Assembly (NCBI GenBank): GCA_023251515.1
Contig: JAHEYQ010000007.1
Span: 50,363-98,417 of the forward strand
Direction: 5' to 3'
From: Bacteroidales bacterium
Lineage (GTDB): Bacteria; Bacteroidota; Bacteroidia; Bacteroidales; JACABE01
DNA length: 48,055 nt
Shown here: positions 16,536 through 43,197 of the stretch, one piece after another
Layout: the number at the start of each line of letters is the position of its first letter
How positions within the stretch are numbered: the first letter of the stretch is position 1
Translations under genes and position numbers: made by a program
The notes under the pieces: generated by a model
Told to the model about the DNA's origin: nothing
Databases searched by the model: none
What the model saw: only the letters and a program-made list of their open reading frames with translations

Positions 16536-19448
16536 ATGGCAACAACATTATTTGAGAAAAATATCCTTGATCTTAACTTTTCTTTTTTAACTCAAAAAGG
16601 AGAAAGTGGGATATTATTGACAAATAATTATGTAAATATCAAAAAAGACTTAGCCTCCCCTGACTTACTATTTTCATTGGAAATTGCCAAAACTAAATTC
16701 AATGCAGATGCAGTATATTTCCGTTTTTTTCAGGATGGAAGAGCAGCAGTGCCTCATTTATACTTATTTGATTATACTCAAAAGAATCTTACCACTGAAG
16801 ATAAGAACCGCATTCATATCCAAATGTGGAATGGCTATCAGGTTCCTGCTTATATTATTATTGAAAAATCTACTGTAAGTGTATTTGATTCCAGAAAGAA
16901 GCCTGATGATAAGAGAGATGTTTACGCAAAAGAAATTATAATATTTGCTGGTGAAGCAATTAAGGATTTTAAAGCACATGATTTTGATGATGGCTTATTT
17001 TGGGATGAACAAAACGAGAAAAAAGATTTTAAATTTGAACAATCTGCTACCAAGGATTTAATTAGGGGCTTGAAAAATGTTTATGAAAGTTTTCAAAAAA
17101 AATCAGGATTAAACAGACATGTCGCACTGAAATTACTTGTCCAAAGCCTTCTTATAAAGTATTTGGAAGAACGAGACGAAAAAAGTGCCAGTGGCTATTT
17201 TGCAGGTACATATTTCAAAAATAATTTCCAGTGTGAAAATTTCTGTGCAACTATCAGAAATGGAAAACTTTTGGATTTATTAGACCAATTGGCTAAAGAC
17301 TTTAATGGTAAAATATTTGAATGGCATAAAGAAGAGGAAAAAGAAGAAAGAGATGCAATTAGAAAAACAGGAGTACAACAACTTGCTGATTATTTAGATG
17401 GAAATATTCAGGACAACCAATATATTCTTTGGCGATTATATTCATTTTCGCATTTACCTGTAGAAGTAATTAGCTCTGTATATGAAGAACTATTGACTGA
17501 CAGTAAAGATATTGTTTACACACCAGAAATGATAGTTTGCACTTTGGTGGATGAATGTATGCCTCTAAAATGCCCGAAACAGGATTTTAAATTAATTGAT
17601 GTAAGTTGTGGCTCGGGAATTTTTTTGGTAAAAGCGTATAAACGCATTGTCCAATGGTGGAGATATGAACAATGGTTAAAAACCGGAGAATTAGTTAAAC
17701 CCCCATTATCTGTATTAAAAGAGTTGCTTTTAAAAAGCATACACGGCATAGATATAGAACAGGATGCCATACGATTAACTGTATTTAGTCTGGCATTGGC
17801 AATCTTGGATGAAGTTAATTTAGACCCACCAACATGGCAAGTACTTAAGTTTCCAGATTTAAGTGAGAATATTGTTACAAAAGACTTCTTCAAGTATATT
17901 ACAACATTTCCAAAAGACAGATTTGATTTAGTAATTGGCAATCCTCCATTTAACTTGCAAACTGTTAATGGTAAAGAACCGAACAGAAAAAGATATTTTA
18001 AGGAATTAAAAGAACAAACAGGATACAAAAGCGAGATTAGCATCCCTGATGAAAACCCTGCTTTGCACTTTTTGGTACAATCAATGAATTTATTAGAACC
18101 TAACGCTTTGCTTTGTTTGATTCAACCTTCAGGTCCATTGCTCTACCAAAAGGATATAGATTTTAAGCAGAAATTGTTTTCCAAACATAATCTATTGCAA
18201 GTTATTGATTTTACTAAACTGGCAGATAAACTTTGGGGTAGGAAAAATGTAGCTACTGCTGCAGTATTTATACAAAATTTAACCCCTGATAATGAAGACG
18301 TTCTTCACTTGGTTGCCAATCGTACCTTTTCAAATAAAAACCGTTTATTTTTAGAATTTGACCACTATGATTTTCATTTAGTCAGCAAAGACGCTATTTT
18401 GCAAAATCCATATATTTGGAAAGCAAATTTATTAGGTGGAGGTAGGATTGTGCAATTGATTGAAAGATTATCAAGTTTACGGACACTAGGAGAATTTTTA
18501 AATGGAAAAGAAAACGAAGGATGGATAAAAGGGGAAGGATTTATAGAAAAAGGTGATAAAAATCAAGCAACATATATTACTGGTAATGATTTTTTACCCA
18601 CAGAATCATTTTCTGAAAAAGGTTTTGAAATTGACCATTTCCCTAAATGTACAATCGATTTTTTTCATAGACCTAGAAAAAAAGAATTGTATAGTCCACC
18701 TCATTTATTAATTAGAAAAGTTCTTGGAAAAGAAAAACTAATAACAAAATTCTCTGATTTATATTTAACCTTTCTTAGTGATATTTTTTCAATTTATGCA
18801 CCAATGAAAGACAGAAGTGAATTAATTAATATTTCTAATTATTTAGATTCAACTGGTGAGTTATTACGTTTTTATATCTTAGCGACTAGTAGTAGAGTTA
18901 AAGTCAATAAAGCAACTTCATTATATGATGAAGATATTTTGAATATTCCTTTTCCTTATAATCTATCTGAAGTTATACTTTCAATAGCTGAAAATATATT
19001 ATTAAATGATTCAATGCTATATTTCTTTTGTTCAGATTCTAAAAACGTCTTTGAACAAAGTATTTCAGAAAAACAAATACAGCAATTCTCAAATATTTTC
19101 TGCCAAACATTAAATAGCGTATATCAATCTGAAGGAAAATCTTTTCAACTATTTAAAATACTGGATGCTGGTAAATATTATGCCTTACACTTTGAATATT
19201 CAACAGAAATTATCAATCCTGAAATTGAACAAATAGATAATTTAGAACAATATATAAACGAAATAATTCCTGCAAGAAAAAAAAACCAAGAAAATACTCA
19301 TATCCAGAGAATAATGAAAGTGTATGGACAGGATTGTATCATTTTGGCCAAACCCAAACAATTACGTTACTGGTTACTCTCAATTGCTTTAAGGGATGCA
19401 GATGAAACATTTGCTGACTACATAAAAACCCGTTACCATAATGCTTAA
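16536..19448 (+). CDS. Single-chain Type IIG / MmeI-like restriction-modification protein: gamma-class N6-adenine DNA methyltransferase core with large N- and C-terminal extensions
   Basis: 970 aa. Motif I IDVSCGSGIFLV, then HGIDIEQDAIRLTVFSLALAIL, then motif IV VIGNPPFN, in the same order as MmeI (DPACGCGNFLV / GIEIEEFPAQIAQVALWL / ILGNPPF). N-terminal PAYIIIEKS resembles the MmeI ILLIEMKSRG nuclease segment. ~500-aa C-terminal region would be the TRD. Confidence 0.75.
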   Translation: MATTLFEKNILDLNFSFLTQKGESGILLTNNYVNIKKDLASPDLLFSLEIAKTKFNADAVYFRFFQDGRAAVPHLYLFDYTQKNLTTEDKNRIHIQMWNGYQVPAYIIIEKSTVSVFDSRKKPDDKRDVYAKEIIIFAGEAIKDFKAHDFDDGLFWDEQNEKKDFKFEQSATKDLIRGLKNVYESFQKKSGLNRHVALKLLVQSLLIKYLEERDEKSASGYFAGTYFKNNFQCENFCATIRNGKLLDLLDQLAKDFNGKIFEWHKEEEKEERDAIRKTGVQQLADYLDGNIQDNQYILWRLYSFSHLPVEVISSVYEELLTDSKDIVYTPEMIVCTLVDECMPLKCPKQDFKLIDVSCGSGIFLVKAYKRIVQWWRYEQWLKTGELVKPPLSVLKELLLKSIHGIDIEQDAIRLTVFSLALAILDEVNLDPPTWQVLKFPDLSENIVTKDFFKYITTFPKDRFDLVIGNPPFNLQTVNGKEPNRKRYFKELKEQTGYKSEISIPDENPALHFLVQSMNLLEPNALLCLIQPSGPLLYQKDIDFKQKLFSKHNLLQVIDFTKLADKLWGRKNVATAAVFIQNLTPDNEDVLHLVANRTFSNKNRLFLEFDHYDFHLVSKDAILQNPYIWKANLLGGGRIVQLIERLSSLRTLGEFLNGKENEGWIKGEGFIEKGDKNQATYITGNDFLPTESFSEKGFEIDHFPKCTIDFFHRPRKKELYSPPHLLIRKVLGKEKLITKFSDLYLTFLSDIFSIYAPMKDRSELINISNYLDSTGELLRFYILATSSRVKVNKATSLYDEDILNIPFPYNLSEVILSIAENILLNDSMLYFFCSDSKNVFEQSISEKQIQQFSNIFCQTLNSVYQSEGKSFQLFKILDAGKYYALHFEYSTEIINPEIEQIDNLEQYINEIIPARKKNQENTHIQRIMKVYGQDCIILAKPKQLRYWLLSIALRDADETFADYIKTRYHNA

Positions 19449-20121: not shown

Positions 20122-20280
20122 TTTATTTTGATTGTCCTTTTAAAGCAGTATTAATTTATCAAATTAATTAATCCAAGCTGTGTTTAAATCCAAATATAAA
20201 ATTACATTTCAGCTCGACATACTTCTATAAATAAATAACAATTATTTTTAATCCAACTCAATCCATTTATTTTATATAAC

Positions 20281-20303
20281 CATCTATATAAATTATATAG
20301 ATG
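20281..20303. promoter_or_regulatory. Perfect 23-bp palindrome CATCTATATAA-A-TTATATAGATG in the AT-rich spacer
   Basis: Exact inverted repeat read directly. A second near-palindrome ATCAACATCTAT-N9-ATAGATATTGAT lies at 20423-20455. Confidence 0.4.
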
Positions 20304-20493
20304 ATTATTCTTTTTATATAGTTAACTATTAATTTTATATAATAAATTTTATATAATAAATAATCATTTATATAAATAATATAACAGTCTATTCTTTTTA
20401 TATAGATAGTTATTAAAATAATATCAACATCTATATATTTTTAATAGATATTGATACTTTTTTTATAGATTCAGATGTTTTGAATACCTCCCG

Positions 20494-20979
20494 CTATTTT
20501 TTTTCGGGCTCTTGTGGCTTATTTTTAGGACGGCGGCTCACTTCAAAACGGGGTTTCAATAATTCGTAGGCCGTGCGTGAGCCTGATATATTGTTTTTTT
20601 GTGCAAGTTTCACAAAATTATAGATAAATACTGCTGCTTTCATGGCTTCGGAACCAGTTTTCAGACGTGTATCAGATAACTGTGAACTTAATATTCTTAA
20701 CTTGCTTTCTATTGACGACAACTTATCTTCATAATCAAGGTCTTTCTTCATTTCGGCAATATCTACAAAGGGTGGAACTAACTCGTTAAACTCTTTGCCA
20801 ATGCTGTAAGCGTTTTCAACAAAAGAATAACTGCGATCGCCCTTCTTATGACACTTTTTGCGTTCTTTAATCGAAAGCGTTATCAATGACGGAAACAATG
20901 ATGTAAGTTCATCAATCATCAACATTATTTTATTGTAGGTTTCCTGCTCCATTACTGCAGAAACTTCATTATTATTCAT
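20494..20979 (-). CDS. Hypothetical protein (basic C-terminus)
   Basis: 161-aa ORF with no recognisable motif. Sits between the RM-like module and dnaG. Confidence 0.4.
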   Translation of the reverse strand: MNNNEVSAVMEQETYNKIMLMIDELTSLFPSLITLSIKERKKCHKKGDRSYSFVENAYSIGKEFNELVPPFVDIAEMKKDLDYEDKLSSIESKLRILSSQLSDTRLKTGSEAMKAAVFIYNFVKLAQKNNISGSRTAYELLKPRFEVSRRPKNKPQEPEKK

Positions 20980-30901: not shown

Positions 30902-31095
30902 AAGGTGTGTTTTTACTAAATATGTTTTTTAAAGAACAAAGTTAAGAATTAAAAGTTCATAAACAAGAGGGGGAGAAGAATGGAGGGAGAAATAAACAAA
31001 AGGGATTATTTTATTAACTGATTAACTTCGTTTTTAAGTTTAGGCAAATGATTCTGTAAAATAACCGCTATATTTTCATTCCATGTTATAAACAT

Positions 31096-31422
31096 TTAAG
31101 CACTTTTTCGTTCATAAACCAGTTGTTTATCTCTGTTGATTATTTGAAGGAAAACCGGATTTCTGACGGCTTGTTTTTCTACAATATCAATCTTTCTTTT
31201 TAGCAAGGTTTCCATATTTTCTTTGAAATCCATATAATTATCGAAATAATGATATAAATCTACACCGTTAAACTGCAACAAAATATCGATATCGCTGCTT
31301 TCGTTGAATTTTTCGGTTAAAACCGACCCGAAAACATACAACTCATTTACTTTATATTTAATACATAAAGCAATTATTTCGTTTTTATGTTGTTCTATCA
31401 GATTCATATTGCAAATATACAA
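31096..31422 (-). CDS. MNT-type minimal nucleotidyltransferase (pol-beta superfamily; antitoxin-like)
   Basis: LYVFGSVLTEKFNESSDIDILL is the GS-x9-DxD nucleotidyltransferase motif. ~100 aa. The real start may be the internal MNLIEQH. Confidence 0.7.
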   Translation of the reverse strand: MYICNMNLIEQHKNEIIALCIKYKVNELYVFGSVLTEKFNESSDIDILLQFNGVDLYHYFDNYMDFKENMETLLKRKIDIVEKQAVRNPVFLQIINRDKQLVYERKSA

Positions 31423-31526
31423 AACATTGCGGGAAAGTATATTAAATTCATAAAAAAAAGCAAATTACCGGACAAGCCAGATTTTTATACTGTTGTTAAG
31501 CTTTTTTTTAAAAAGTGAAAAGGTTA

Positions 31527-31763
31527 TTATTTTGAAAGAGCAGCAGAATTATTAAATAAATTGAAGTTTGAAATTGTTTCTAAATCAATATTATCATCAA
31601 AGAAATTGAGAATATCAAGTATGCTTTTAAAAACCCAGAACTTTATCCCATCAAGATTATAAACATATAAAACCTTTTCTAATAAATTGTTTTTTAATAA
31701 AACGGTCTCAATTGTTCTTGATGGGTGTAAATAAGATACATCAATTGCTTTTATTGTGTTCAT
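31527..31763 (-). CDS. Small hypothetical protein (uncertain)
   Basis: 78-aa ORF between the NTase gene and the REC gene, with no motif. Could be non-coding. Confidence 0.25.
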   Translation of the reverse strand: MNTIKAIDVSYLHPSRTIETVLLKNNLLEKVLYVYNLDGIKFWVFKSILDILNFFDDNIDLETISNFNLFNNSAALSK

Positions 31764-31948
31764 TTTCGAAAAATATTATGATAATGAAAATCTAAAAACT
31801 CTTTTGAAGGAAGAAATTTGTCTGGAAGCGTAATAGTCTAATTCTCAAATGCAATAATTAACTTTTTTGATAGTATTTTAAAAAAATCAGTACGAGGAAT
31901 ATAGTTAATGTCATATATAAGTGTTTGGTGAGTATTGATTTCTCAATT

Positions 31949-32878
31949 CTATGCAGGGATTAACAAATTCTTATTTATCGAATCTAATAAAGCACCATAA
32001 AGTTTCAATGCTTTTCTGATTTCACTACAATATTCATCATTGAGCTCTATTTCAGTTGATTTATATACAAAAATCTTCTTGCCATCTTTCATGATAGGAG
32101 TTCCATGAGCAAGGATGTTTCTCGGCTTTGATATACAATTCTTATATGAATTCTTGAATCCATCTTGTTTATGAATTGAGAAAGAATCTGGTAAAATGGA
32201 ATCAAGTATAAATTGAGTTGCATATATTTTTCTTTCTGTGTCAAATAACATATTTTCCTTTAATAACTTTTCTGTATCTTTTTTAGTAGAATACTTTTCG
32301 CATTTTTCTTTTTTTTCAGAAGAGAACTTTGTTGCTTCTTCAAACAAATGATCAGTCAAAGCCTCTTTAAAATCAAGTCTATTCTCTAATACAGTTTTTA
32401 CAATCTGATGCATTTTTTTATCAAGATCACTTGTCTCTGCCAAAATAAGCCCACGCATATTATTTATATCTTGAATTTTTTTGATCGTTGTATGAATAAT
32501 TTTTTCAACCTTCTTTACAAATGAATTACCATCTCTGCTTGAAAAATAGACACCCTCTAGTTCTAAATCTTTTACTTTCTCTAATACCTTACTTACACCC
32601 TCTGAAGAATAAAAGATGATATTAGTAAAAACTTCAAAACTCCGAATTTTTTCAATGAGTTTATCCCCTGTTGGTGACTTCTCCAAATTAAGATCCATGA
32701 GAATTAAATCATACTCAGAAAAATTAATATTTTCAATATTATCCCCATTTTTCTTAAGCAGTGGCAAAGTCATGATAAATCCAAGTTTATCCTCAATTAC
32801 TTCTTTTATGTTATCAATAATTGATTCATACCAATCTTGATCATCTTCAAACCAAAGAATGTTGTAAGCTAGATTCAT
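31949..32878 (-). CDS. Receiver (REC) domain protein with C-terminal HEPN-like domain (Rx4H motif), last gene of the MTase operon
   Basis: N-terminus ILWFEDD...YDLILMDLNL...IIFYSS follows the CheY-like acidic pocket / phospho-Asp / Thr-Ser pattern. C-terminal helical region contains PRNILAHG (R-x4-H). 4-nt overlap with the upstream gene. Confidence 0.6.
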   Translation of the reverse strand: MNLAYNILWFEDDQDWYESIIDNIKEVIEDKLGFIMTLPLLKKNGDNIENINFSEYDLILMDLNLEKSPTGDKLIEKIRSFEVFTNIIFYSSEGVSKVLEKVKDLELEGVYFSSRDGNSFVKKVEKIIHTTIKKIQDINNMRGLILAETSDLDKKMHQIVKTVLENRLDFKEALTDHLFEEATKFSSEKKEKCEKYSTKKDTEKLLKENMLFDTERKIYATQFILDSILPDSFSIHKQDGFKNSYKNCISKPRNILAHGTPIMKDGKKIFVYKSTEIELNDEYCSEIRKALKLYGALLDSINKNLLIPA

Positions 32879-35172
32879 TTTTTCAATTGGATATTTAGTT
32901 CAAAACCTTTTTTATTTTGAGAATTCACAGTAATTAATCCTTTCAGTTCTTTTAAAACAGTATTTGCAACATTATATAACCCTAATCCTGAACCAGATGT
33001 TGTTGTAACTCCTTTTTCGAACACTGAATTTGGAGCATCTAATTTATTGGACAAACCTTTTCCATCATCCCTAATATTTAAACCTAATGTATTAATATCA
33101 ACTTTGAAAATATCTATAAAAATATTGCTTGCATTAGCTTTAATTGAATTGTCTATAATGTTGTCAAACATAAGACTTACTTCTAATGGCTTAAATGGAA
33201 TCACAAAATCAGAATCACTTTTATTCTTAAAATGAACTTTTATATCTGGATAAAATTCTCTTAAAACATTCTCTGAATACTGATCAATAAAAGAAATGAA
33301 ATCAGTATCACGCAACTCCTGACCTGAAAGATTAAAATTTGCTTTAGTTGCGAATCTTGATATTGACAAGATTTTATTATTAGCACGAGAAACTGCCTCA
33401 ACAAATTTTTTCAATTTTTCCTCGTCTACTGTTTTGTTATCTATTTCTTTTGCAATCCTATTGAGCCAATTATTTACAGTACTTGCATGAACTCCAATAT
33501 CATGGTGATATCTAACAATTCTATTTATATCTTGATTATCTACTGATTGTAGAAATAATACTTGTTTTACTTTCTGATCTAATTTTTCTTCAACTACTTT
33601 TTTTTCGGCTCCTATATTTTCATTTTCTCTTTCAGCTTCAATTTTAGCTTCAATTAGTTCTTTAACTTGTTTTTCAGCAGCCTTAGCCTGTTTTACAAGA
33701 TCTGGATTTTGAGTTTCTTGAGCAATTCGATTAAAGTTCTTTACTATTTGAGAGACACTTTTTTCTTGTTTTGCTTCATATATTCTTAAAAAATCCTTAT
33801 CGTAACCAATATCAATTACTTCTTTTGCTTTTGTTAATGTGGAAATAATTTCTAATATCTCTCCTCTTACATCTTCTGGGTTTATGCTTGGACTTATTTC
33901 TCCTGTATCTTTATCCTTTCTCTCATCTCCCCATTTAATAATATCTACCGTATATTTTTCTAGACGTTTAAGAGCTTTATCGTAAAACAAATCTACAAGT
34001 TCATAGTAAGAATCATTTTTAATAAAGCCACCATCTCTACTGGTTGTTTCTTTTAGATTAGATTGTTCTCCTGAAATCTCTATTCTTCCAATTAAGTCTC
34101 TAGTTCCTAAAAATCGATTATATCCTTGTTGCTTTCTTCTATCAATCAGTAATGTGTCATCACCCTCTTCTCCAAAAGGATAAATACGGAAACCATTTTT
34201 ATAAATAAAAACGGAGCCATAATCAACCGACCGAATATCCATTTGCTTTTTAAAATTGATCTTTGCTTCAAAATTTAAAACAAAAAGATTGATTTTAATG
34301 TCTGACAATAAAGGATAATGATTCCGCTCTTTAATCCAATAAATTTCTTTGCCTCTATCAGTTAAGGTTGTTTTTACGACTCCACCGTTTTCTATTATCT
34401 CGACTTTTATTTGAGTTGTTTTTAAACCAAGAGTTTCAAAAACAAAATTTTTTATTTTTCCGTTTAGTCTATTTCGTTCAATTTTTTCATTTTTATCCTG
34501 AACAAGCTCATCGAAAGCAATAATTTCTATATCAAAGTTTTCAATGTCATTCTCTTGAATTGGGTTAATCAATTTTTCTAGTGAAAATTTCAACCGTTTT
34601 ATACGCCCTCTATCCCATACATCTCTCAATCCGGTTATTTCGAGAATAGTTCCTTTTTTGAAATCTTTATAACTTGTTGAATTTAAGATAGAATGAAACA
34701 CTTTAACATCGACAAATTCTTTATTAGAATCCTCTTCAAAATCTGTCCAATCAACAATAAGATTTTCTATCTTTGAATTAGGCTCATCTTTCAATGTAAT
34801 CAAATTCAATTGATCTCCTAGCCTATCACAAGAAAATCTCCCAACTCCTTTTGCTCCAGCAAAAATTCGTTTAGTTTTAATTTTATCACGATAATCTTTA
34901 TCTTCTGTTCCATCATTCTTAGCTGAATATGCAACAAATAACCATTTGTTTTTTAGATCATCAAAGCTCATTCCTCTTCCATCATCCCAAATTGTTATCT
35001 TTGCTGTTTCAAGGTTATACTGATTCTCAAAAATCACTTTTACGTGTTTAGCATTGGCATCAAATGAATTCTTTACTAGCTCAAAAACAGCAACAAACTC
35101 ATCTGTAATTAATTCCTTGCCAATAAGATTCTTTAAGGCTGAACTTATTCTAAACTGCATTTGATTCTCCAT
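32875..35172 (-). CDS. Fusion protein: N-terminal MORC-like GHKL ATPase (HATPase_c_3-type) + C-terminal histidine-kinase core (HisKA_3-like H-box + HATPase_c)
   Basis: N-terminal Bergerat motifs ELVKNSFDANA, ITIWDDGRGM and GAKGVGRFS. C-terminal RIVRYHHDIGVHASTVNNWLNRI resembles the NarX-type H-box RIARELHDSIGQ. HATPase_c boxes DNIIDNSIKAN, IRDDGKGL and GSGLGLYNV. Confidence 0.7.
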   Translation of the reverse strand: MENQMQFRISSALKNLIGKELITDEFVAVFELVKNSFDANAKHVKVIFENQYNLETAKITIWDDGRGMSFDDLKNKWLFVAYSAKNDGTEDKDYRDKIKTKRIFAGAKGVGRFSCDRLGDQLNLITLKDEPNSKIENLIVDWTDFEEDSNKEFVDVKVFHSILNSTSYKDFKKGTILEITGLRDVWDRGRIKRLKFSLEKLINPIQENDIENFDIEIIAFDELVQDKNEKIERNRLNGKIKNFVFETLGLKTTQIKVEIIENGGVVKTTLTDRGKEIYWIKERNHYPLLSDIKINLFVLNFEAKINFKKQMDIRSVDYGSVFIYKNGFRIYPFGEEGDDTLLIDRRKQQGYNRFLGTRDLIGRIEISGEQSNLKETTSRDGGFIKNDSYYELVDLFYDKALKRLEKYTVDIIKWGDERKDKDTGEISPSINPEDVRGEILEIISTLTKAKEVIDIGYDKDFLRIYEAKQEKSVSQIVKNFNRIAQETQNPDLVKQAKAAEKQVKELIEAKIEAERENENIGAEKKVVEEKLDQKVKQVLFLQSVDNQDINRIVRYHHDIGVHASTVNNWLNRIAKEIDNKTVDEEKLKKFVEAVSRANNKILSISRFATKANFNLSGQELRDTDFISFIDQYSENVLREFYPDIKVHFKNKSDSDFVIPFKPLEVSLMFDNIIDNSIKANASNIFIDIFKVDINTLGLNIRDDGKGLSNKLDAPNSVFEKGVTTTSGSGLGLYNVANTVLKELKGLITVNSQNKKGFELNIQLKK

Positions 35173-36378
35173 CTATAATATAATTTCTTTTAAAGCCAAA
35201 CCCGCAAGTTCTGCAAACAAAGGTGGAATTGCATTTCCGATTTGAGTATATCGAGGTACTTCAACTTTACGCATTTGTCCACCTGTAGTATATTTCTCTT
35301 TTATTTCATACCAATCAGGAAATGTTTGTATTCTAGCATATTCCCGAACAGTTAATATTCTGGGTTCTGAATAATGAATATAATCATCAGGATGAGTTGT
35401 CAGAGTTGGTGAAATTTGTTTTGAATCCAATAAAGTTATCCCTCTTTTTTTTATTTTCCAGTGTTCACGTTCCTTGTTTGCAATTCTTTTACCTTTAATT
35501 GGATAATACTCTATTATTGATGAGAAAACGTTCACTGTTTCTCCGTTATGATTCGCAAAGCTATGACTGTCAGGAATTGTGTTTTTCTGAGTATAGTCTC
35601 CACGCATTAGAGTTTGAAAATTAGAGTTTGATTTACCATAAAATCCAGATTTGAAACTTTTTCGGTCAGGTGTTTTAACAGTGCCATTAGAACTGAGTAA
35701 ATCTGAAATAGCATCTCCAATTGTTGTAGTGTCTTTTATCCCTTTTTCTTCCAAGTAAACTTGTTTTAGCTTATCAATTGTTGGTTCAAAATCTGATGCT
35801 TTTCCATTCAAAGATCCTACTAAAATAAAGCGTTTCCTTCGTTGAGGTACGCCATATTTTGAAAAATCTATAATATGAGGTTTTACACAATACCCTAATT
35901 CATTTAGTTTATCAATAACTATTTTTGAATATGGAACAGCATCGTTTTCTCCTTTTTTATTAAATGCATATGTAAATCCCTTCACATTCTCAAAAAGAAT
36001 CATCTTTGGACGAACTAATTCAATAAAGTTTATATATGAATAAACTAATTGATTTCGCATATCTTCTTCAACTCTTTTCCCTGCCATTGAAAATCCTTGA
36101 CAAGGCGGTCCCCCAGCCACTAAATCAACAGTACCTCTTAGTCCTCTTAAATCCTTAGCGTGATTCTTTAAAACTTCATTAATATCATGATTTTCAGGTT
36201 TTAGCCAATCAGGCCATTCAAAATGTTTTTTATTGTCTATCAAATTGAATTTCAATGTTTCAAAGGCAAAGGGACTTTTTTCTATAGCAAATAATCCTTT
36301 CCAACCTGCATTATGCAAGCCCAAAGAAAGACCGCCACAACCAGCAAAAAGATCTATATAAGAAAAATTTTGATTCAT
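35173..36378 (-). CDS. DNA (cytosine-5)-methyltransferase
   Basis: Motif I DLFAGCGG, motif IV GGPPCQGFS, motif VI ENV, motif X QIGNAIPP. 401 aa. Stop directly abuts the start of the ATPase-kinase gene. Confidence 0.9.
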   Translation of the reverse strand: MNQNFSYIDLFAGCGGLSLGLHNAGWKGLFAIEKSPFAFETLKFNLIDNKKHFEWPDWLKPENHDINEVLKNHAKDLRGLRGTVDLVAGGPPCQGFSMAGKRVEEDMRNQLVYSYINFIELVRPKMILFENVKGFTYAFNKKGENDAVPYSKIVIDKLNELGYCVKPHIIDFSKYGVPQRRKRFILVGSLNGKASDFEPTIDKLKQVYLEEKGIKDTTTIGDAISDLLSSNGTVKTPDRKSFKSGFYGKSNSNFQTLMRGDYTQKNTIPDSHSFANHNGETVNVFSSIIEYYPIKGKRIANKEREHWKIKKRGITLLDSKQISPTLTTHPDDYIHYSEPRILTVREYARIQTFPDWYEIKEKYTTGGQMRKVEVPRYTQIGNAIPPLFAELAGLALKEIIL

Positions 36379-36547
36379 AGTAATATTTATGATACAAAAC
36401 TACAAAAAATAGGATTAAAAATTATATTTATTTTATATTTAGATAAAATCTGTTTAATATATTCAAAAACAATTGATTAACATCCTTAAATAAACTTTCC
36501 ATAGCTTTCATTTTTTCTTGAAAATTTATATTTATACACGCATAGCC

Positions 36548-36830
36548 GGGCTGAAAACTTCCGATGGAGATATTTTAAGCTTCGCTGTCAGGGGAAAAAC
36601 TTCCGATGCCGATACTAAAAGACTCAATGTAGGGGCAAAAAGATTCCCCGTCGATATTAAAAGACCCGGCGGAGATACCAAAAGACTCTTTGCCGGAGTA
36701 TAAATACTCTCTGTCGTAGCAAAAAGACTCGGTGGAGATATAAAAAGATTCGGCACCGAGGAAAAAAGACTCTGTCGAGATATAAAAAGACTCTAGGTCG
36801 AGGTAAAAAGTATCTCCATCGGGTCTTTTG
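36548..36830. repeat. Degenerate ~40-bp-period repeat array (repeat family 1), core GGAGATAyaAAAAGACTC, at least 7 copies, one inverted
   Basis: Copies at 36566, 36609, 36650, 36671, 36734, 36775. Inverted copy AAAAAGTATCTCC near 36805. Confidence 0.65.
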
Positions 36831-36834
36831 ACAC

Positions 36835-36864
36835 CAGGGGGGGTGGGTAAACCACCCCCTGAGA
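36835..36864. other. G/C-rich hairpin CAGGGGGGGTGG-GTAAA-CCACCCCCTG separating the two repeat families
   Basis: ~10-bp GC stem with a bulge, in an otherwise AT-rich spacer. Confidence 0.5.
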
Positions 36865-37060
36865 GGTAAATAGATGCTTTGAGGGTGTAAATACCTGCTC
36901 AGAGGATATAAATAGATGCTCTAAAGGGTGTCGATAGCTGCCCGGAGGGTATAAATACATGCTCTGTAGGGGGTAAATAGATGCTCTATAGGATCTAAAT
37001 AGATGCTCTATAGGGTGTCGATAGATGCCTGGAGGATATATACAGATGCTTTAGTGGGGG
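36864..37060. repeat. Tandem ~21-22-bp direct repeats (repeat family 2), consensus TAAATAGATGCTCTATAGGGTG, ~9 head-to-tail units, no spacers
   Basis: Units start at 36866, 36887, 36908, 36930, 36951, 36973, 36995, 37017 and 37038, with progressive degeneracy. Confidence 0.7.
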
Positions 37061-37152
37061 TTGGTTAAATAAGTAAATATAAAAATGGGTATTTTTCTGA
37101 ACGTTTCCCGATTTCAGTTGTAATCATAGTATAATTCAAAAAAATAAATATC

Positions 37153-38325
37153 ATGAACAATATTAAAAAAATCAACATTCTTATATTCCTTATCGGAATT
37201 TATCTGCTGCCGCTTAATGCCCAAAAACCCGAAAAGGTGTATTCCATTGTAAAACAAATAAAATCAATCGACTGGTACCGCACTCAGGCAAAACTCTGGA
37301 AACAGGAAATTGCCAAAGATACTGCCAACGAAACCGCATGGATAAATTATTATGCAGCCAATCGAATGGCAAGAATGACAGATGCCGGATTGTGGAATAA
37401 AGAAAAAGGGGATTATTTTCTCGATTTAAAGACCATAGTGAGCAAAGCTGAAAAAGCCATTCCCGAAACCTATGAGTTTTATCATATGAATGTATGGGAT
37501 AAGGGAATTTACGACATAAAACAGGCCGATTTTATGTTCAAAGCTATGAAAATGTATCCCGACCGCATGGATATGATAAGTAATTATGTAAACTATTACG
37601 AAATAAACCGCGATAAGGAAAATATGAAGAAATATTGCAGCAAATGGTTTAGCAGCAACGAAATTTCGCCGGGAATACTGGCTTATAATTATAATGTATT
37701 AAGCACTTTAGAAGACAATGCCATTATTTTTACCAATGGCGACAACGATACCTATCCGCTCTGGATACTGCAATATGCCAAAGGTATAAAAAAGGAAGTA
37801 AGTGTTTTTAATGTAAGTTTGCTGCAGATAGATAGCTACAGAGATAAATTGTTTGCCGAAATCAGAATACCGGCTTTCGATACCGCAAAATTTATGAAAA
37901 CCTATAAAACAGAAATGGATTATCCACAGGCAATTATCCGTCACATTATCCAGAATACCGATCGGCCGGTGTATATGGCTTCAACCATGAGCAATGAATA
38001 TTACAAAGAATTTGAAAAAGACCTTTATCTTACCGGATTGGCTTTCCGCTACAGCAAATCGGATATAGACAATACGGCCTTTATCAGAAAAAATTATGAA
38101 AAAAACTTCCTTCTTGATTATATAAAGATTAATTTTACAAATGATTTGTCGGAAACGGTAGTAGCTCAGATGAATATGGGTTATCTGCCGGTATTATTCA
38201 AATTGTATGAACATTATGGATTGACAGGCGAAACCGAAAAAAGAGCAGAAGTTAAAAAACTTGCAGCAATAATTTCAGCAGCAGCAGATAAAGAAACAGA
38301 AGTAATGCCCTGGTTCGAAAAATAG
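37153..38325 (+). CDS. Secreted hypothetical protein, first gene of a putative operon with the ECF sigma/anti-sigma genes
   Basis: Signal peptide MNNIKKINILIFLIGIYLLPLNAQ. 390 aa with no recognised catalytic motif. Only 5 nt precede the sigma-factor start. Confidence 0.5.
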   Translation: MNNIKKINILIFLIGIYLLPLNAQKPEKVYSIVKQIKSIDWYRTQAKLWKQEIAKDTANETAWINYYAANRMARMTDAGLWNKEKGDYFLDLKTIVSKAEKAIPETYEFYHMNVWDKGIYDIKQADFMFKAMKMYPDRMDMISNYVNYYEINRDKENMKKYCSKWFSSNEISPGILAYNYNVLSTLEDNAIIFTNGDNDTYPLWILQYAKGIKKEVSVFNVSLLQIDSYRDKLFAEIRIPAFDTAKFMKTYKTEMDYPQAIIRHIIQNTDRPVYMASTMSNEYYKEFEKDLYLTGLAFRYSKSDIDNTAFIRKNYEKNFLLDYIKINFTNDLSETVVAQMNMGYLPVLFKLYEHYGLTGETEKRAEVKKLAAIISAAADKETEVMPWFEK

Positions 38326-38330
38326 CAGGA

Positions 38331-38909
38331 ATGGGAATTTTTCAGAAAAACTACACAAAGTACAGCATAACAGAGCTGATGCAATTCGTCAGAAGCGGAA
38401 ACAAAGCCGCTTTTGATGAATTGTATAACAGATATGCCCAAAAAATGCTGATGTTTTTTTACCGTATGCTTGCCAATGATAAAGATAAGGCTCAGGATTT
38501 TACCCACGATTTGTTTCTGAAAATTATAGAAAAACCCGAACTTTATGATACAAACCGTAGTTTCGATACATGGATTTTTACACTGGCCTACAATATGTGC
38601 AAAAACGAATATAAAAAACTCAAAATCCGTCAGGAACATCAGAAAGAACAACAACTTACGGCAGAAAATACAGTTTATATAAATGATGGTTTCGACAAGG
38701 AACTTTATCGCAAACAACTCGAGCAGCATCTGCAGCAAATGGACGAAGAACACAAAAGCATTATTATCCTTCGTTTCGAAGAAGAACTCAGTGTAAAAGA
38801 AATTGCTCAGATAGTAAATTGCCCGGAAGGAACCGTAAAATCCAGAATTTTTTACACCTTGCAGGCGCTGTCAGTCAAATTATCCGTCTTTAATCCATTA
38901 AACAATTAA
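38331..38909 (+). CDS. RNA polymerase ECF-type sigma-70 factor
   Basis: Region 2 (DFTHDLFLKII...SFDTWIFTLAYNMCKNEYKK) and region 4 HTH (ILRFEEELSVKEIAQIVNCPEGTVKSRIFYTLQAL). Confidence 0.85.
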   Translation: MGIFQKNYTKYSITELMQFVRSGNKAAFDELYNRYAQKMLMFFYRMLANDKDKAQDFTHDLFLKIIEKPELYDTNRSFDTWIFTLAYNMCKNEYKKLKIRQEHQKEQQLTAENTVYINDGFDKELYRKQLEQHLQQMDEEHKSIIILRFEEELSVKEIAQIVNCPEGTVKSRIFYTLQALSVKLSVFNPLNN

Positions 38910-38914
38910 GCCTT

Positions 38915-39550
38915 ATGCAAAAAGATATATTTCAACAGATTCCCGATTTCGACCAATTGCTCGAAACCAAAACTTTTGATGAATTAAGCATTTCTGAAAA
39001 AGAAAAGGTATTGCAACATATTAGCCCCGAAGACTATGAACAATACCGGAATGCTTTTTTTATGCTAAAAACCGGAATAAATCAACAGCAATTAAAACCC
39101 GATATGCTAAGAAAAAAAGCTTTAATGCAGGCTTTCGACCAAAAACACAGCCACAAATCCGATACATTTATAATGCGGTTTGTCAATTATAAAATACCAC
39201 TATATCAGACTGGTATTGCAGCTGCTTTGATACTGGCTTTTGTATGGTTTTTTAATAATCCTGCCGAAAAAATCAAATATGTGAATACCACCGATACAGT
39301 TTATGTGGAAAAACCGGTTTATGCCGAAGTGGTGAAAAATCAGGATGTTATTGATGACATTAAACCTACACAGAAAACATCAGTAAAACAAGCAAGCAAA
39401 AAAACCTTACCAACAGAAAAACCCAATTATTACAAAGAATATCTGGCAAATAATATTTTATCGAAAATACAGAGTGTTCACCAAATGAAACGAGGCAATA
39501 ATATAGGTAAAGATTCGGTTCTGCTGGCATGGATAATGCCTGTAAGGTAG
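38915..39550 (+). CDS. Putative anti-sigma factor (single-pass membrane protein)
   Basis: Follows the sigma gene after 5 nt. One central TM helix (IAAALILAFVWFF). Typical ECF anti-sigma architecture. Confidence 0.55.
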   Translation: MQKDIFQQIPDFDQLLETKTFDELSISEKEKVLQHISPEDYEQYRNAFFMLKTGINQQQLKPDMLRKKALMQAFDQKHSHKSDTFIMRFVNYKIPLYQTGIAAALILAFVWFFNNPAEKIKYVNTTDTVYVEKPVYAEVVKNQDVIDDIKPTQKTSVKQASKKTLPTEKPNYYKEYLANNILSKIQSVHQMKRGNNIGKDSVLLAWIMPVR

Positions 39551-39748
39551 TTGTTTGTAATTTTTACTAACCATAAAAGTAACATCTTAATCAGAATTTA
39601 TTATTCTAAAAGGAAATAATATATTTGCAAGTTATATTATAAATTCAAACAATTATTAATAAAAACAAAAGAATATGTATTCAAAAGAATTGATTCTGTT
39701 TTATGTTTTTGTGGAAATTTACAAGCAAAATTAAGATTAACTCGAAGA

Positions 39749-39910
39749 GTTTAATTTACATAACCCCCAATTTTATTGGGGGAAAGAAAGTAAATACGTG
39801 CATAACCCTTTAGGGTTGAATTATTTATTTGATAGTTCAACCCTAAAGGGTTGTTGCTTTTAAAAAGCTTTATAACCCCCAATATTATTGGGGGTTATGT
39901 AAATTCAGTC
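39749..39910. mobile_element. ~160-bp nested inverted-repeat element (MITE/REP-like)
   Basis: Outer arms AATTTACATAACCCCCAAT ... ATTGGGGGTTATGTAAATT. Two internal CCCCCAAT-(T/A)TTA-TTGGGGG hairpins. Central inverted pair CAACCCTTTAGGGTTGAA / TTCAACCCTAAAGGGTTG. Confidence 0.55.
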
Positions 39911-40185: not shown

Positions 40186-40527
40186 ATGAGATATTTCGAG
40201 ACAAAATTTTTAGAAGAAGCAAACGAGTTCATTTCGCATCTCGACTCTAAGAATATTAAGAAAATCTTTTACAATATTGACCTTGCAGAACAGACAAATG
40301 ATCCAAAACTTTTTAAGAAACTACAAAATGACATTTGGGAGTTTCGGACAAAGTTTGCAGGACTTCAAATCAGACTTCTTGCATTTTGGGACAAAACAGA
40401 TAACAAAGAAACCTTGGTAATAGCAACCCACGGTTTCATAAAGAGAGTTGACAAAGTTCCGGCAAACGAAATAGACCGGGCAGTAAGGCTGAAGGATAAA
40501 TATTTTGATAAAAAACAAAAAAAGTAA
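40186..40527 (+). CDS. Type II toxin-antitoxin system toxin, RelE/HigB (phage Gp49-like) family
   Basis: IWEFRTKFAGLQIRLLAFWDKTDNKETLVIATHGFIKRVDKVPANEIDRA matches the Gp49/HigB-like killer-protein pattern. 113 aa. Confidence 0.7.
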   Translation: MRYFETKFLEEANEFISHLDSKNIKKIFYNIDLAEQTNDPKLFKKLQNDIWEFRTKFAGLQIRLLAFWDKTDNKETLVIATHGFIKRVDKVPANEIDRAVRLKDKYFDKKQKK

Positions 40528-40531
40528 TTAT

Positions 40532-40858
40532 ATGGCAACTAAAGAATTAAAGACTTACACTCTTGCCGAGATGAAAGACAAGTATATCGGAAAAGTTGGG
40601 ACAACAGAACGCGACGAATATGAATATGAACTTCGTATGGACGTTTTAGGAAAGATGATTAAAGCTGCCCGACAAGAAAGAAACTTGACACAAGAAGAGC
40701 TTGGACGACTTGTAGGAGTTCAGAAAGCTCAAATTTCAAAACTTGAAAACAGTACCAACAGTGCTACAATTGATACTATTTTGAAAGTTTTCAGAGCATT
40801 GAAAGCAGAAATCAACTTTAACATAAAACTTGAAGACAACTTTGTTAAACTTAGCTAA
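40532..40858 (+). CDS. XRE-family HTH antitoxin (HigA-like)
   Basis: Start placed at MATKELK, 4 nt after the toxin stop. HTH LTQEELGRLVGVQKAQISKLENS. Confidence 0.7.
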   Translation: MATKELKTYTLAEMKDKYIGKVGTTERDEYEYELRMDVLGKMIKAARQERNLTQEELGRLVGVQKAQISKLENSTNSATIDTILKVFRALKAEINFNIKLEDNFVKLS

Positions 40859-40931: not shown

Positions 40932-41630
40932 TTACCTCTCTAACAACCTGAAACCATTGCCATGCAGATTCATAATTTCGATATTACTGTCATCTTTAAA
41001 TAATTTGCGGAGTTTGGTAATATACACATCCATGCTTCGGGTTGTGAAATAGTTATCATCGCCCCAAATGGTTTTCAGAGCCAGTTCGCGGGGTAGCAGA
41101 TTATCCTGATGCAAAAAAAGCAATCGTAGCAATTCGGCTTCTTTTGGCGACAAATTGTAAATTCTTTCGCCATCATAAACTTCTCTCAACTTGTATTTAA
41201 ACAAATATTTACCTATACTGAAGTCCTGCTGTACTTCAGTTTTAGCCCCCTCGAAATGATGCTGGGCTTTAAATATTGCTTTTATTTTGAAAAGAAAAAT
41301 TTCGGTATCGAAAGGTTTGGTTATATAATCGAAAGCACCCAGCTTATAGCCTTCGAGTATATCTTCCTTAAGCGTTTTGGAAGTTAAAAACACAAAAGGA
41401 ATATCGGGATTTATTTTTGTTATTTCTTTAGCCAGCTCAAAACCATCCATATAAGGCAGCATTACATCCAGAATGCAAAGGCTGAAACGTTCTTTGATAA
41501 ATGCCGACAAACCCTGATTGCCATCAGTTTTCAGAACAACCTCGTAATCGCTTAATTGTAAATATGATTTCAGTACCGAACCAAAATTAACATCATCTTC
41601 TACCAGTAGTATTCTTTCTTTATTTTGCAT
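40932..41630 (-). CDS. OmpR-family two-component response regulator
   Basis: Receiver domain (ILLVEDDVNFG...LCILDVMLPYMDG) and winged-helix trans_reg_C output domain. Confidence 0.9.
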   Translation of the reverse strand: MQNKERILLVEDDVNFGSVLKSYLQLSDYEVVLKTDGNQGLSAFIKERFSLCILDVMLPYMDGFELAKEITKINPDIPFVFLTSKTLKEDILEGYKLGAFDYITKPFDTEIFLFKIKAIFKAQHHFEGAKTEVQQDFSIGKYLFKYKLREVYDGERIYNLSPKEAELLRLLFLHQDNLLPRELALKTIWGDDNYFTTRSMDVYITKLRKLFKDDSNIEIMNLHGNGFRLLER

Positions 41631-43197
41631 GGTTATCCTTATTTATTAATGGCAAAATTACATCAAAACAACTTCCTTTACCCAATTCACTTTTCACTTT
41701 AATATCTCCGTTATGCGCCATCACTATGGCTTTTACATAGCTTAATCCCAAACCGAAACCTTTTACATTGTGCACATTACCTTTGGCTACACGATAGAAT
41801 TTATCGAATATTTTTGACAAGTGTTCTTTTGACATACCAATACCATTATCGCTGACTGAAACGATTACTTTTTGCTGGTAAATAATGGTTTTAATACGTA
41901 TTTCGGGCGAAGTTTCAGTATATTTAATGGCATTTTCGAGCAAATTAATAAAAATATTAAGCAGATGGTTGTAATCTCCGTTTATTTCAACTGCTTTATC
42001 AGCAAAATCGTCAAGAATTTTCCCATGTTTGCTTTCTGCCTGAAGCTTTATTTTTGAGATGGCATCTTTCAGCAATGTATGTAAATCAATGTTTTCGGGT
42101 TTCAGGTTAAATTCTTTTTTCTCGAGCAAAGCCATTTGCAGCACATGTTCTACATGGGTATTCATACGCTGGTTTTCTTCTTTTATAATACGTACAAAAT
42201 CCGTTATCTGAGTTTTATCACTAATTACCTTTTCGTTGATTATGGCATCGGAAGCAAGTGAAATAGTTGCAATGGGAGTTTTAAACTCATGTGTCATATT
42301 ATTTATAAAATCCGTTTTTACATCCGATAGTTTTTTTTGCCTGATGATGTATAAAATGGTATAAATAAAAGTAGCCACAATTACCGAACTGAATAAGAAA
42401 GAAGCAATCAGCATAATCCACATGCTTCCGATAATATAATTCTGTTTCCCGCTAAATGTAAGCAACAGATAGTCGGGTTTGTTGATGAGGTCGTTTGGAA
42501 ATAGATTTACTTTATAGCTTTCGTTTTTGTGGGTTTTATCCGATTTGCTTGCTTCGGCTTTATTGCATATCTGAAATTCGAAAGGAAGATTAATATTTTG
42601 TTCTTTAAACTCCAGATTAAGGAGTTTTGTCAGTTCTTCTTTGTCAATTCTTTGCAAAACCGACGAATTTCTATTGGTGTATTCCATCACCATCTGATCA
42701 ACAATTTTCAGAAAATTATTTTTCTCCTGATTATCTGACGATGATTGCTTATTGCTTTTATTATCAGCAAACTTGATAATGGTTTTTGTTTTCAGTTTTT
42801 GAGGTAAACTATCTTCATTTATTTTTATAGAACAGCAATCTTTATTAATTACGATTTTAATTTTGTCTTTGCACTGGTTTTCATCTTCTTTTTCCGATTC
42901 ATCAAAAAATTTTAAAGATTGAATCAAGGTATCAGTAAAATTATCAATTTTATCAGTAATAATTCTGTTTATCATACCTTTGCTATCGATAGAACTGGTA
43001 ATAAATGTAACAACATCCTGCTTATTGAGTTTATCAACGGCTTTGTTCATCGCTTCAAGGCAGGATCTGTCGAATTGTTCTTGCTTCAGTTGATAGGCGT
43101 TGCTTATCCATTTTATCTGAAAACCAATAATTACAACTAAACAAATCAGTTGAAGTATGATGATTATTTTTATTTTTTTACTACTCATAAATATCAA
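41620..43197 (-). CDS. Sensor histidine kinase (HisKA + HATPase_c) with N-terminal TM/periplasmic sensor region
   Basis: H-box NMTHEFKTPIATISLASDAI. N/G boxes (LLENAIKYT, SDNGIGM, GFGLGLSYVK). Two TM helices. 11-nt overlap with the regulator gene. Confidence 0.9.
   Translation of the reverse strand: MIFMSSKKIKIIIILQLICLVVIIGFQIKWISNAYQLKQEQFDRSCLEAMNKAVDKLNKQDVVTFITSSIDSKGMINRIITDKIDNFTDTLIQSLKFFDESEKEDENQCKDKIKIVINKDCCSIKINEDSLPQKLKTKTIIKFADNKSNKQSSSDNQEKNNFLKIVDQMVMEYTNRNSSVLQRIDKEELTKLLNLEFKEQNINLPFEFQICNKAEASKSDKTHKNESYKVNLFPNDLINKPDYLLLTFSGKQNYIIGSMWIMLIASFLFSSVIVATFIYTILYIIRQKKLSDVKTDFINNMTHEFKTPIATISLASDAIINEKVISDKTQITDFVRIIKEENQRMNTHVEHVLQMALLEKKEFNLKPENIDLHTLLKDAISKIKLQAESKHGKILDDFADKAVEINGDYNHLLNIFINLLENAIKYTETSPEIRIKTIIYQQKVIVSVSDNGIGMSKEHLSKIFDKFYRVAKGNVHNVKGFGLGLSYVKAIVMAHNGDIKVKSELGKGSCFDVILPLINKDNHAK

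Follow-up and report, generated by a model that had tools for sequence, protein, structure and literature searches.

BrickBuilt, an element of Porphyromonas gingivalis, is at once an intergenic minisatellite and a MITE (miniature inverted-repeat transposable element), in which 1–22.8 imperfect 23-nt repeats follow one another without spacers; its total length ranges from 84 to 991 nt, its repeats comprise conserved and variable positions, and unique leader and tail sequences flank the array (Klein et al., 2015; PMC4596501). Short repeats of another type, the TAACTGA heptamers, are found in Cyanobacteria, Beggiatoaceae, and Bacteroidetes, and their horizontal spread has been proposed (MacGregor, 2015; PMC4679880). 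Among protein-binding repeats, those recognized by LytTR regulators are 9 bp long and separated by a 12-bp spacer (PMC2766830). In this study, we analyzed a 48,055-nt stretch of a Bacteroidales genome (contig JAHEYQ010000007.1; the whole stretch is hereafter called the window), with particular emphasis on a repeat-bearing segment at 36410–37091. The segment is located between a C5 DNA methylase gene and an operon encoding a 390-aa protein and an extracytoplasmic function (ECF) sigma factor, flanking genes that are those named in the preliminary description of this DNA, and it holds two tandem-repeat families, Family 1 (F1) and Family 2 (F2), parted by a G-rich hairpin, also as first described.

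The segment consists of old tandem duplications; it is non-coding junction DNA that is specific to this strain and can be dispensed with. With roughly even confidence, we read it as a decayed element of the minisatellite type, brought in by rearrangement and closest to BrickBuilt among described elements. The likeness is one of layout, judged against the published description: both elements belong to Bacteroidota, are strictly intergenic, consist of imperfect repeats that are about 22 nt long, lack spacers, and combine conserved with variable positions, reach a similar copy number and total length, and have unique flanks on both sides. They differ in that two unrelated repeat families joined by a hairpin are present here, in a single copy within 48 kb, and in that BrickBuilt is active as a promoter, whereas a search of the present arrays revealed no promoter motif. 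On this reading, the element is a variety of bacterial intergenic minisatellite, a kind that is already known. Its parts and the starts of the two neighboring genes are as follows (window coordinates).

36378, minus strand: start of the methylase gene, the left neighbor of the repeat tract
36410–36547, no strand: left flank of the arrays, unique, AT-rich, in a leader-like position
36548–36820, plus strand: F1, 13 units of exactly 21 bp, each composed of the 9-bp box AAAAGAYTC and 12 variable bp
36807–36829, minus strand: inverted F1 unit, AAAAGACCCGATGGAGATACTTT, seen in inverted-repeat pairs I1, I3, I4, and I6, which closes the right end of F1
36835–36861, no strand: G-rich hairpin, CAGGGGGGGTGG-GTAAA-CCACCCCCTG, with a G7 run and two G unpaired
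36867–37060, plus strand: F2, nine units of 21/22 bp with the consensus TAAATAGATGCTCTAGAGGGTG and a 43/87-bp higher order
37061–37091, no strand: right flank of the arrays, short and unique, ending at the junction 37091/37092
37153, plus strand: start of the 390-aa gene, the right neighbor of the repeat tract, followed by the ECF sigma gene

When cut in 21-nt steps from 36548, F1 yields 13 consecutive units in register with zero insertions or deletions (indels). Self-identity reaches 0.53 at lag 21 and 0.60 at lag 42, against about 0.18–0.27 at other lags, and Tandem Repeats Finder (TRF) returned periods of 42 and 21 across 36554–36809. The lag identities together with the register layout therefore set the base period at 21 bp; the 42-bp super-unit reflects an alternation of GATAY.. 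and GRGG.. units. An array with a period of about 40 bp had been proposed for F1, which is right as to the array but not as to its true period. Information content peaks as one contiguous block at unit positions 7–15 (AAAAGACTC), most strongly at positions 7–10 and 15, and the remaining 12 positions are variable; mean unit identity is 56%, and neighboring units share 0.38–0.67 of their positions. The core, reported earlier as present in at least six direct copies and one inverted copy, retains that count only in its short form, since regular-expression counts gave six direct matches and one inverted match (36829, minus strand) for AAAAGACYC and seven direct matches for AAAAGAYTC, whereas the full 18-mer GGAGATA(c/t)(a/c)AAAAGACTC has a single exact match, at 36671.

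The nine F2 units counted over 36867–37060 bear out the earlier estimate of about nine head-to-tail copies of 21–22 bp. Their core, ATAGA-TGC-TCTAT, is palindromic, mean unit identity is 73% (0.55–0.91 between neighbors), lag-87 identity is 0.66, and the 87-nt blocks match at 81% (TRF). An 11-bp sub-period is also present (lag-11 identity 0.38 vs. about 0.2 elsewhere), and G prevails over C on the plus strand of F2 (0.30:0.13). A common origin of F1 and F2 as one diverged family was rejected, as the alignment score of the two consensus sequences was reached by 307 of 2000 shuffles. The hairpin between them, CAGGGGGGGTGG-GTAAA-CCACCCCCTG, occurs once in the window and has a DNA folding energy of about -10 kcal/mol; no T-run adjoins it on either strand, and a terminator scan of the region was empty. 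With no T-run at the hairpin and mixed orientation of arrays relative to genes, both the hairpin and the T-rich strand of the units were ruled out as terminators.

Chance origin of the repeats is excluded by match counts in the window: the F1 15-mer, allowing up to 2 mismatches, has six matches, five of them in the region, where 0.37 were expected, and the F2 22-mer, allowing up to 3 mismatches, has four against an expectation of 0.00. Scans of the 48-kb window with both unit patterns placed them in this region only. The F2 exact 19-mer had one match in the JGI metagenomes, an unrelated single one (L127) attributable to chance and not part of an array, and zero in a viral scan. Exact repeats inside the region do not exceed 19 nt (two adjacent F2 units), and each of its 25-mers occurs only once in the window; short reads therefore assemble here without ambiguity. 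Moreover, a single other assembly carries the locus, a Logan contig built from run SRR14366783; it matches the window at 100% over 32153–39766, arrays included, and possibly derives from the same reads as the window. An assembly artefact, named at the outset as a possible refutation, is thus not what was found.

The strongest evidence for the junction character of the segment comes from the relatives of its two neighbors, in which each block of genes is preserved and the repeats are missing. The following features of these blocks are needed for the comparison.

31947–36409, minus strand: acquired three-gene cassette encoding a REC-like protein (309 aa, 31949–32878), a HATPase_c_3/HATPase_c protein (765 aa), and a C5 DNA methylase (401 aa), as annotated with Pfam
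36395–36402, minus strand: Bacteroidetes-type -7 box, TAGTTTTG (TAnnTTTG), about 20 nt before the methylase ATG
37098–37128, plus strand: ECF-type promoter-like element, TGAACGTTT-N9-TCAG-N-TGTAATC, upstream of the 390-aa gene

To the right of the repeats, the operon encodes, in order, a 390-aa TMEM260_2-like protein, the ECF sigma factor, and a 211-aa protein. Its relatives comprise six DNA loci (L002, L340, L341, L342, L003, and L004) and P0002, known by its gene table. In the four closest (L002, L340, L341, and L342; 95.4–95.9% nt identity), a DEAD-box helicase gene lies divergently upstream of the 390-aa gene; the same arrangement is found in L003 and L004, which represent one relative (83% aa identity), and for P0002 (89% aa identity) the gene table likewise shows a helicase neighbor, separated by about 215 bp. 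The spacers between helicase and 390-aa genes in the six DNA loci are about 225–285 bp long and contain no repeats. Homology to the window starts exactly at 37092 in all four close relatives. The element at 37098–37128, which we take as a putative ECF-type promoter of the 390-aa operon, is carried by all six DNA loci and does not vary in any column among the window, L002, L003, and L004.

A similar picture emerged on the left side. Copies of the cassette stand in unrelated gene contexts in L124 and L125 (87% nucleotide identity) and in L126 (84.5%); homology runs from 31947 to 36360–36409 only, and no repeats precede the methylase gene in any of the three copies. TAnnTTTG is the established -7 consensus of Bacteroidetes promoters. 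Within 36300–37200, on both strands, it occurs once, at 36402 on the minus strand, and not inside the arrays; L124, L125, and L126 have the counterpart TATATTTG about 20 nt before the methylase ATG, and TAGTTTTG is a candidate for the cassette's own promoter. Both promoter-like elements lie outside the arrays, at a distance of 37 bp on the ECF side and about 146 bp on the methylase side. The left flank (36410–36547) has no homology to the relatives of either the cassette or the ECF operon, and an AT-rich stretch (36380–36540) runs alongside the arrays. Further to the left, homology of the sucAB block with its relatives, in which GlnS stands beside sucA, stops at 30967. Judged from these alignments, 30968–37091 is mosaic, island-like DNA, and the approximately 680 bp of 36410–37091, repeats included, belong to neither conserved neighbor and are unique junction DNA. 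The suggestion that the tract stands at the edge of acquired DNA is borne out by the cassette, found at 87% nucleotide identity in unrelated contexts, and by the position of the repeats between it and the sharp junction at 37091/37092.

We propose that the arrays grew through replication slippage or unequal recombination, which would have produced 21/22-bp units in 42-, 43-, and 87-bp blocks, and that the units later diverged to the present mean identities of 56% in F1 and 73% in F2. Rearrangement or island building would have joined the Dcm-ATPase-REC cassette to the 390-aa/ECF-sigma/211-aa operon, with the right junction at 37091/37092, and the arrays would either have arrived via that rearrangement or already have lain in the DNA that received the ECF block. 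The DNA adjoining the arrays differs by about 4–5% from the nearest relatives without arrays; because the internal duplications have diverged to identities of 81%, 56%, and 73%, we infer that the arrays are older than the junction and did not arise on the spot after the split. Their present activity would most likely be passive and exerted at the DNA level. The exact phase of 21.0 bp, two helical turns, is predicted to place A-tract and box on one face of the helix every two turns over 273 bp, resulting in intrinsic curvature and a curved, multi-site docking surface, and F2 would offer a palindrome of 13 bp at intervals of ~21.6 bp, along with an 11-bp sub-period such as OmpR/PhoB-type dimers use. 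Together, F1 and F2 may serve as an extended, structured spacer that separates two divergent promoters, and the repeat element would have no operon-specific regulatory role.

Several points weigh against a purely neutral relic brought in by rearrangement. F1 has no indel over 13 units despite about 44% pairwise divergence, and its 9-bp box is sharply kept; this retention of phase and box points to some constraint, unexpected for such a relic. F1 also ranks first in curvature among the 126-bp stretches of the 48 kb in the Bolshoy-Trifonov wedge model (end-to-end/contour ratio 0.48 vs. a median of 0.95) and within the top 2% of the window in the De Santis model, a rank that depends on the model and, for the former, on the wedge parameters used. 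Absence in relatives makes the segment dispensable, yet it is compatible with a function in this strain. The better folding of the plus strand as RNA leaves a slim chance of an RNA role, which is weighed below. A MITE is defined by multiple copies, terminal inverted repeats, and target duplication; the 48 kb hold one copy of the element, its sole terminal-inverted-repeat candidate is an AT-rich, low-complexity perfect 11-mer (36431–36441 and 37074–37084), and no target duplication was seen.

Arrays resembling F1 were sought in one genome per GTDB species using the pattern AAAAGAYTC-N12-AAAAGAYTC followed by TRF, and the counts below are among the matches listed; since box and 21-nt period were imposed by the scan pattern, they carry no independent weight for likeness to F1. 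Single pattern matches were mostly chance or coding K-D-S/K-R-L repeats. Real 21-nt arrays were found at no fewer than 32 Nostocales loci (typical units CGAGTATAAAAGACTCGTTCA and ACGGAGATAAAAGACTCATTA) and at least about nine Bacteroidota loci, with 5–22 units per array. The loci, with array coordinates for some of them, are listed here.

Chryseobacterium: L058 (3008–3196) and L067 (~4660–4850)
Epilithonimonas: L098 (3495–3655)
Aquimarina: L057 (977–1071) and L095 (3083–3286)
Flavobacteriales UBA720: L048 (~1850–2040)
Chitinophagaceae: L118
Saprospiraceae: L019 (3130–3433)
Bacteroidota: L052 (1175–1300)
Nostocales: L010, L012, L013, L020, L024, L029, L034, L038, L043, L049, L055, L056, L065, L071, L075, L081, L084, L085, L088, L094, L097, L099, L100, L105, L108, L112, L115, and others

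The Flavobacteriales arrays are diverged, keep an exact 21-nt phase, and follow the plan AAAAGACTC-N6-GAGTAT, some with inverted units at one end; a 15-mer, GAGTATAAAAGACTC, is common to them and to Nostoc arrays. In Nostocales (Nostoc, Mojavia, Spirirestis, Westiellopsis, and Tolypothrix), the arrays are intergenic, comprise 9–22 copies with a 42/63-nt higher order, and each unit consists of a 4–5-bp hairpin and an A-rich linker. The contigs of L019 and L052 end inside near-perfect arrays (units GTGAGACTCCTCAAGTACTTC and GACAAAAGATTCCTGCGGAAG), and such arrays probably break short-read assemblies. A feature independent of the pattern is the GAGT(AT) arm located 6 nt after the box, which gives rise to an ACTCN-loop-NGAGT hairpin in which compensatory changes from G-C to A-T occur. 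Arrays of this class pair at 0.6–1.0 at the four stem positions, as compared with 0.0, 0.3, 0.8, and 1.0 in F1 (CTC/GAG only), where stems are 2–3 bp long. When F1 tails were compared with class profiles, shuffled tails matched the score in 4 of 2000 and 3 of 2000 trials; the scores themselves were negative and slightly above those of circular shifts.

The listed arrays are always intergenic, in either orientation, and have unrelated neighbors (PolA, DinB, an ABC transporter, and an RHS protein among them), with no recurrent neighbor gene; array and neighbor orientation was opposite/opposite in 10 cases, same/same in 6, convergent in 5, and divergent in 2. Such placement fits DNA-level or selfish elements. 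No Rfam match was obtained at eight loci with related arrays, and the searched literature contained neither the Nostoc/Flavobacteriales unit sequences nor a description of such 21-bp arrays. With TAACTGA repeats and the cyanobacterial short tandemly repeated repetitive (STRR) sequences, the arrays share a patchy cross-phylum spread (Nostocales and Bacteroidota), an intergenic location, and a length that is a multiple of seven (21 = 3 × 7), but they are not simple heptamers, their 21-nt units have an internal box and, in the other genomes, a hairpin, and they show no preference for sites just upstream of start codons. In viral contigs, the F1 pattern gave mostly single, uninformative matches and a few short 21-nt box arrays in giant-virus and other contigs. 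The periodic F2 pattern, ATAGATGC-N13/14-ATAGATGC, gave more than 120 viral matches (IMG/VR, L220–L339) with the 13-nt gap strongly over-represented; these were ruled out as F2 repeats, since they encode the motif P-I-D-A-x-N-H-x-I-D-A. We take this motif to be that of a phage terminase, and ATAGATGC-N13-ATAGATGC is a trap for repeat-pattern searches. F1 might be a diverged member of an undescribed cross-phylum class of 21-bp-phased intergenic arrays kept by selection, either as a docking platform for LytTR-like or nucleoid-associated proteins or as a curved-DNA architectural or insulator element, with a patchy distribution due to horizontal spread. We regard this as doubtful; the wider class is a lead rather than a result, as the scan pattern imposed part of the similarity and only listed matches were considered.

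Other explanations of the segment differ in what they require of its neighbors. As originally suggested, the arrays could be an operator or a set of iterons for the adjacent ECF sigma/anti-sigma pair or for a factor that regulates the methylase operon. This would suit their site between two divergent operons and their combination of two-turn direct repeats and a single inverted copy, which recalls autoregulated iteron systems. However, both operons lack the arrays in relatives, each keeps a promoter-like element outside them, the TGAACGTTT..TGTAATC motif is absent from the repeat units, and the Pfam domain of the methylase begins at residue 5, leaving no N-terminal extension for DNA binding. 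Because relatives keep both operons without arrays, the arrays are not a conserved operator of either and, as far as the alignments tell, are probably not an operator of the neighboring operons at all; we give this explanation very little credence. A phase-variable contingency tract, in which a frequently shifting copy number tunes promoter spacing, was also among the initial proposals and would agree with a tandem repeat between divergent promoters, with the G7 homopolymer in the hairpin, and with two adjacent F2 units identical over 19 nt. It is most unlikely, as units are only 56% and 73% identical, adjacent ones share just 0.38–0.67 (F1) and 0.55–0.91 (F2), no exact repeat exceeds 19 nt, the promoter-like elements stand outside the tract so that -35/-10 spacing is unaffected by copy number, and the two assemblies agree exactly. 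Direct repeats of such length are also known from plasmids: the R6K gamma origin has seven 22-bp iterons, sopC of F has 12 repeats of 43 bp, and parC of R1 has two iteron blocks around a promoter. With these, the segment shares the iteron-type layout of spacer-less head-to-tail repeats (13 × 21 bp in F1, 9 × 21/22 bp in F2; iterons are typically 17–22 bp with ~22-bp spacing), two-helical-turn phasing, one terminal copy in inverted orientation, a 43-bp super-unit in F2 reminiscent of sopC, two blocks about a central element as in parC, and the adjacent AT-rich stretch at 36380–36540, so that plasmid or integrative and conjugative element (ICE) iterons, or a sopC/parC-type centromere, left after integration could be imagined. 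Nevertheless, no rep, par (ParA, ParB, or ParR), integrase, or relaxase gene was found in the 48 kb, where Pfam annotation covered the 44 main open reading frames (ORFs; ≥78 aa); no TTATCCACA-like DnaA box is present in 36380–37150; a distant blastn search of 36480–37100 against 72,556 plasmids and 50,697 phages returned no similarity; the units are far more diverged than is usual for functional iterons; and the neighbors are chromosomal housekeeping genes. A replicon relic is accordingly highly improbable, and a plasmid-type iteron array finds no support. Nor is the segment a clustered regularly interspaced short palindromic repeat (CRISPR) array, as had been stated from the start: short direct repeats and a nearby defense-type cassette recall one, but the units are diverged and head-to-tail, without unique spacers, and no cas genes occur among the annotated ORFs.

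The repeat segment is non-coding. Four of six frames contain no more than two stops, unit conservation has no third-codon-position pattern, and mean information by codon phase in F1 is 1.11, 0.81, and 1.10, which confirms the earlier remark that the predicted 61-aa ORF merely mirrors the DNA periodicity. A decayed gene for a heptad-repeat protein, with seven codons per 21-nt unit (e.g., xxKRLxx) and now a pseudogene, would explain a period divisible by three, the lack of indels, and an AAA-AGA-CTC frame with only two stops in 91 codons, but it is scarcely credible given that three other frames are equally open, that conservation takes the form of a contiguous 9-nt block rather than a codon-periodic pattern, that F2 switches between 21 and 22 nt, and that similar arrays elsewhere hold stops and overlap real genes. 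A structured or protein-sponging plus-strand RNA of repeated motifs, or a long 5' leader of the 390-aa gene, is improbable as well. The plus strand does fold better than the minus strand (-188 kcal/mol, z = -6.1, vs. -142 kcal/mol, z = -3.8), G-U pairing favors one strand, the plus strand is G-rich in F2, and the related Flavobacteriales and Nostocales arrays have hairpins with compensatory changes. Against this, Rfam 15, including STAXI and other tandem-hairpin motifs, gave no match at gathering score in the window, with the region searched at E ≤10 (best sub-threshold match 22 bits vs. a cutoff of 49.5), nor at the eight related loci; no sigma-70-like or Bacteroidetes-type promoter is directed into the region, where no sigma-70-like promoter or intrinsic terminator was found at all; F1 stems are short; F1-type arrays occur in either orientation relative to neighboring genes; and repeats with one inverted unit give a low folding energy trivially. 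Unlikely, too, is a docking or decoy array in which F1 offers 13 LytTR-type sites and F2 nine OmpR/PhoB-type 22-bp double half-sites, so that regulators are bound or titrated and DNA architecture and the output of the two promoters are shaped. Sites of the OmpR/PhoB type have a 22-bp unit with an 11-bp sub-period, which F2 shows, and the boxes of F1, 12 bp apart and 21 bp centre-to-centre in a phase kept without indels, follow the LytTR rule as do the sites of AgrA, ComE, and SilA; the geometry is suggestive of a generic DNA-binding array. The window also encodes a LytTR response regulator (9308–10066) with its kinase (9308–11115 together), 26 kb from the arrays, and an OmpR-type regulator (40932–41630) with its kinase (40932–43197 together), about 4 kb away. 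On the other hand, compared by eye, the F1 box on both strands misfits the LytTR consensus, reportedly given by Nikolskaya and Galperin in 2002 as [TA][AC][CA]GTTN[AG][TG]; known LytTR sites are paired and known LytTR/PhoB targets have 2–4 sites, not runs of 9–13; the arrays are missing from every close relative; no regulator gene, LytTR or other, is adjacent to or co-varies with them; and Flavobacteriales arrays of the same type have unrelated neighbors. Of all these readings, we retain the decayed minisatellite-type junction element as the best explanation.

The surroundings of the element are chromosomal, with mreBC, purH, ispG, dnaG, and sucAB housekeeping genes in the window, whose closest named relative is a Chitinophagales metagenome-assembled genome (MAG). 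Counterparts of the cassette lie at 5436–9867 in L124 and 6790–11215 in L126. The three genes of the cassette move together as a compact unit that has a promoter candidate of its own; its 765-aa ATPase, annotated as "histidine kinase", is a double-GHKL protein with more than 7,600 homologs, including some in Phocaeicola. Assignment of the cassette to a known defense system was not supported, as PADLOC matched the methylase alone, as a generic type II methyltransferase, and the C5 methylase-ATPase-REC cassette may represent an unclassified methylation-linked system. Beyond it on the left are a nucleotidyltransferase and a 78-aa ORF, then sucA; the first two (a Polbeta/NTP_transf_2 protein, matched by PADLOC to PDC-S09, and its partner, within 30968–31946) may, judged by position, form a toxin-antitoxin-like pair. 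Beyond the 211-aa gene follow a Gp49/HigB-like and HTH/HigA-like pair (40186–40858, within the mosaic stretch) and the OmpR-type two-component system. Both pairs fit the picture of an island-like hotspot that surrounds the ECF operon. Between the 211-aa and HigB-like genes, a palindromic hairpin cluster (39764–39898) comprises CCCCCAAT-TTT-ATTGGGGG, two copies of AACCCTWWAGGGTT, and ATAACCCCCAAT-ATT-ATTGGGGGTTAT; contigs of Logan, L340, and L342 (the latter two about 95.5% identical) end at 39766–39768, within the first hairpin, which suggests a multi-copy repeat similar to repetitive extragenic palindromic (REP) sequences.

Other repeats were observed elsewhere in the window. Heptamer arrays, (AAGACGG/AAGTCGG) × 8 at 12844–12899 and (GAAGACC) × 3.6 at 14957–14981, each abut the same sequence of about 40 nt (GGCTACCG.ATGTAAAT.TTA.TGTATTTTCTTTTGAAATG), which forms the 3' end of the gene for a 23S-rRNA-intervening-sequence protein (PF05635, 12917–13270) and of a second copy near 15000–15200; an inverted heptamer run (15236–15258) lies on the far side of the second PF05635-type copy. 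These small genes thus appear to be bracketed by heptamer inverted repeats. Next in order, within 15360–19448, a gene for the 37-kDa nucleoid-associated protein NA37 (15360–16403) adjoins a 970-aa Eco57I/type IIG-like restriction-methylase gene (16536–19448) and a 226-aa ORF. A very AT-rich intergenic stretch at 20280–20460 contains TATAGAT palindromes (CATCTATATAA-A-TTATATAGATG) and TRF rows with a 21-nt period; it is located about 0.8 kb upstream of dnaG, with an opposite 161-aa ORF (20494–20979) in between, and the second-highest predicted curvature peak of the window lies at about 21186, near dnaG.

At this locus, the main value of the analysis is corrective: annotation of the repeats as an ECF or methylase operator, as an origin, as a CRISPR array, or as a gene should be avoided, and what they mark is a rearrangement junction within mosaic, island-like DNA. 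Catalogues of bacterial minisatellites phased strictly at two helical turns are poor. Should the 21-bp AAAAGAYTC arrays found in Flavobacteriales, Chitinophagales, and Nostocales turn out to be a single functional class, they would represent a new architectural or docking element acting at the DNA level, and such a class would also account for some contig breaks in MAGs, as two Bacteroidota contigs end in arrays.

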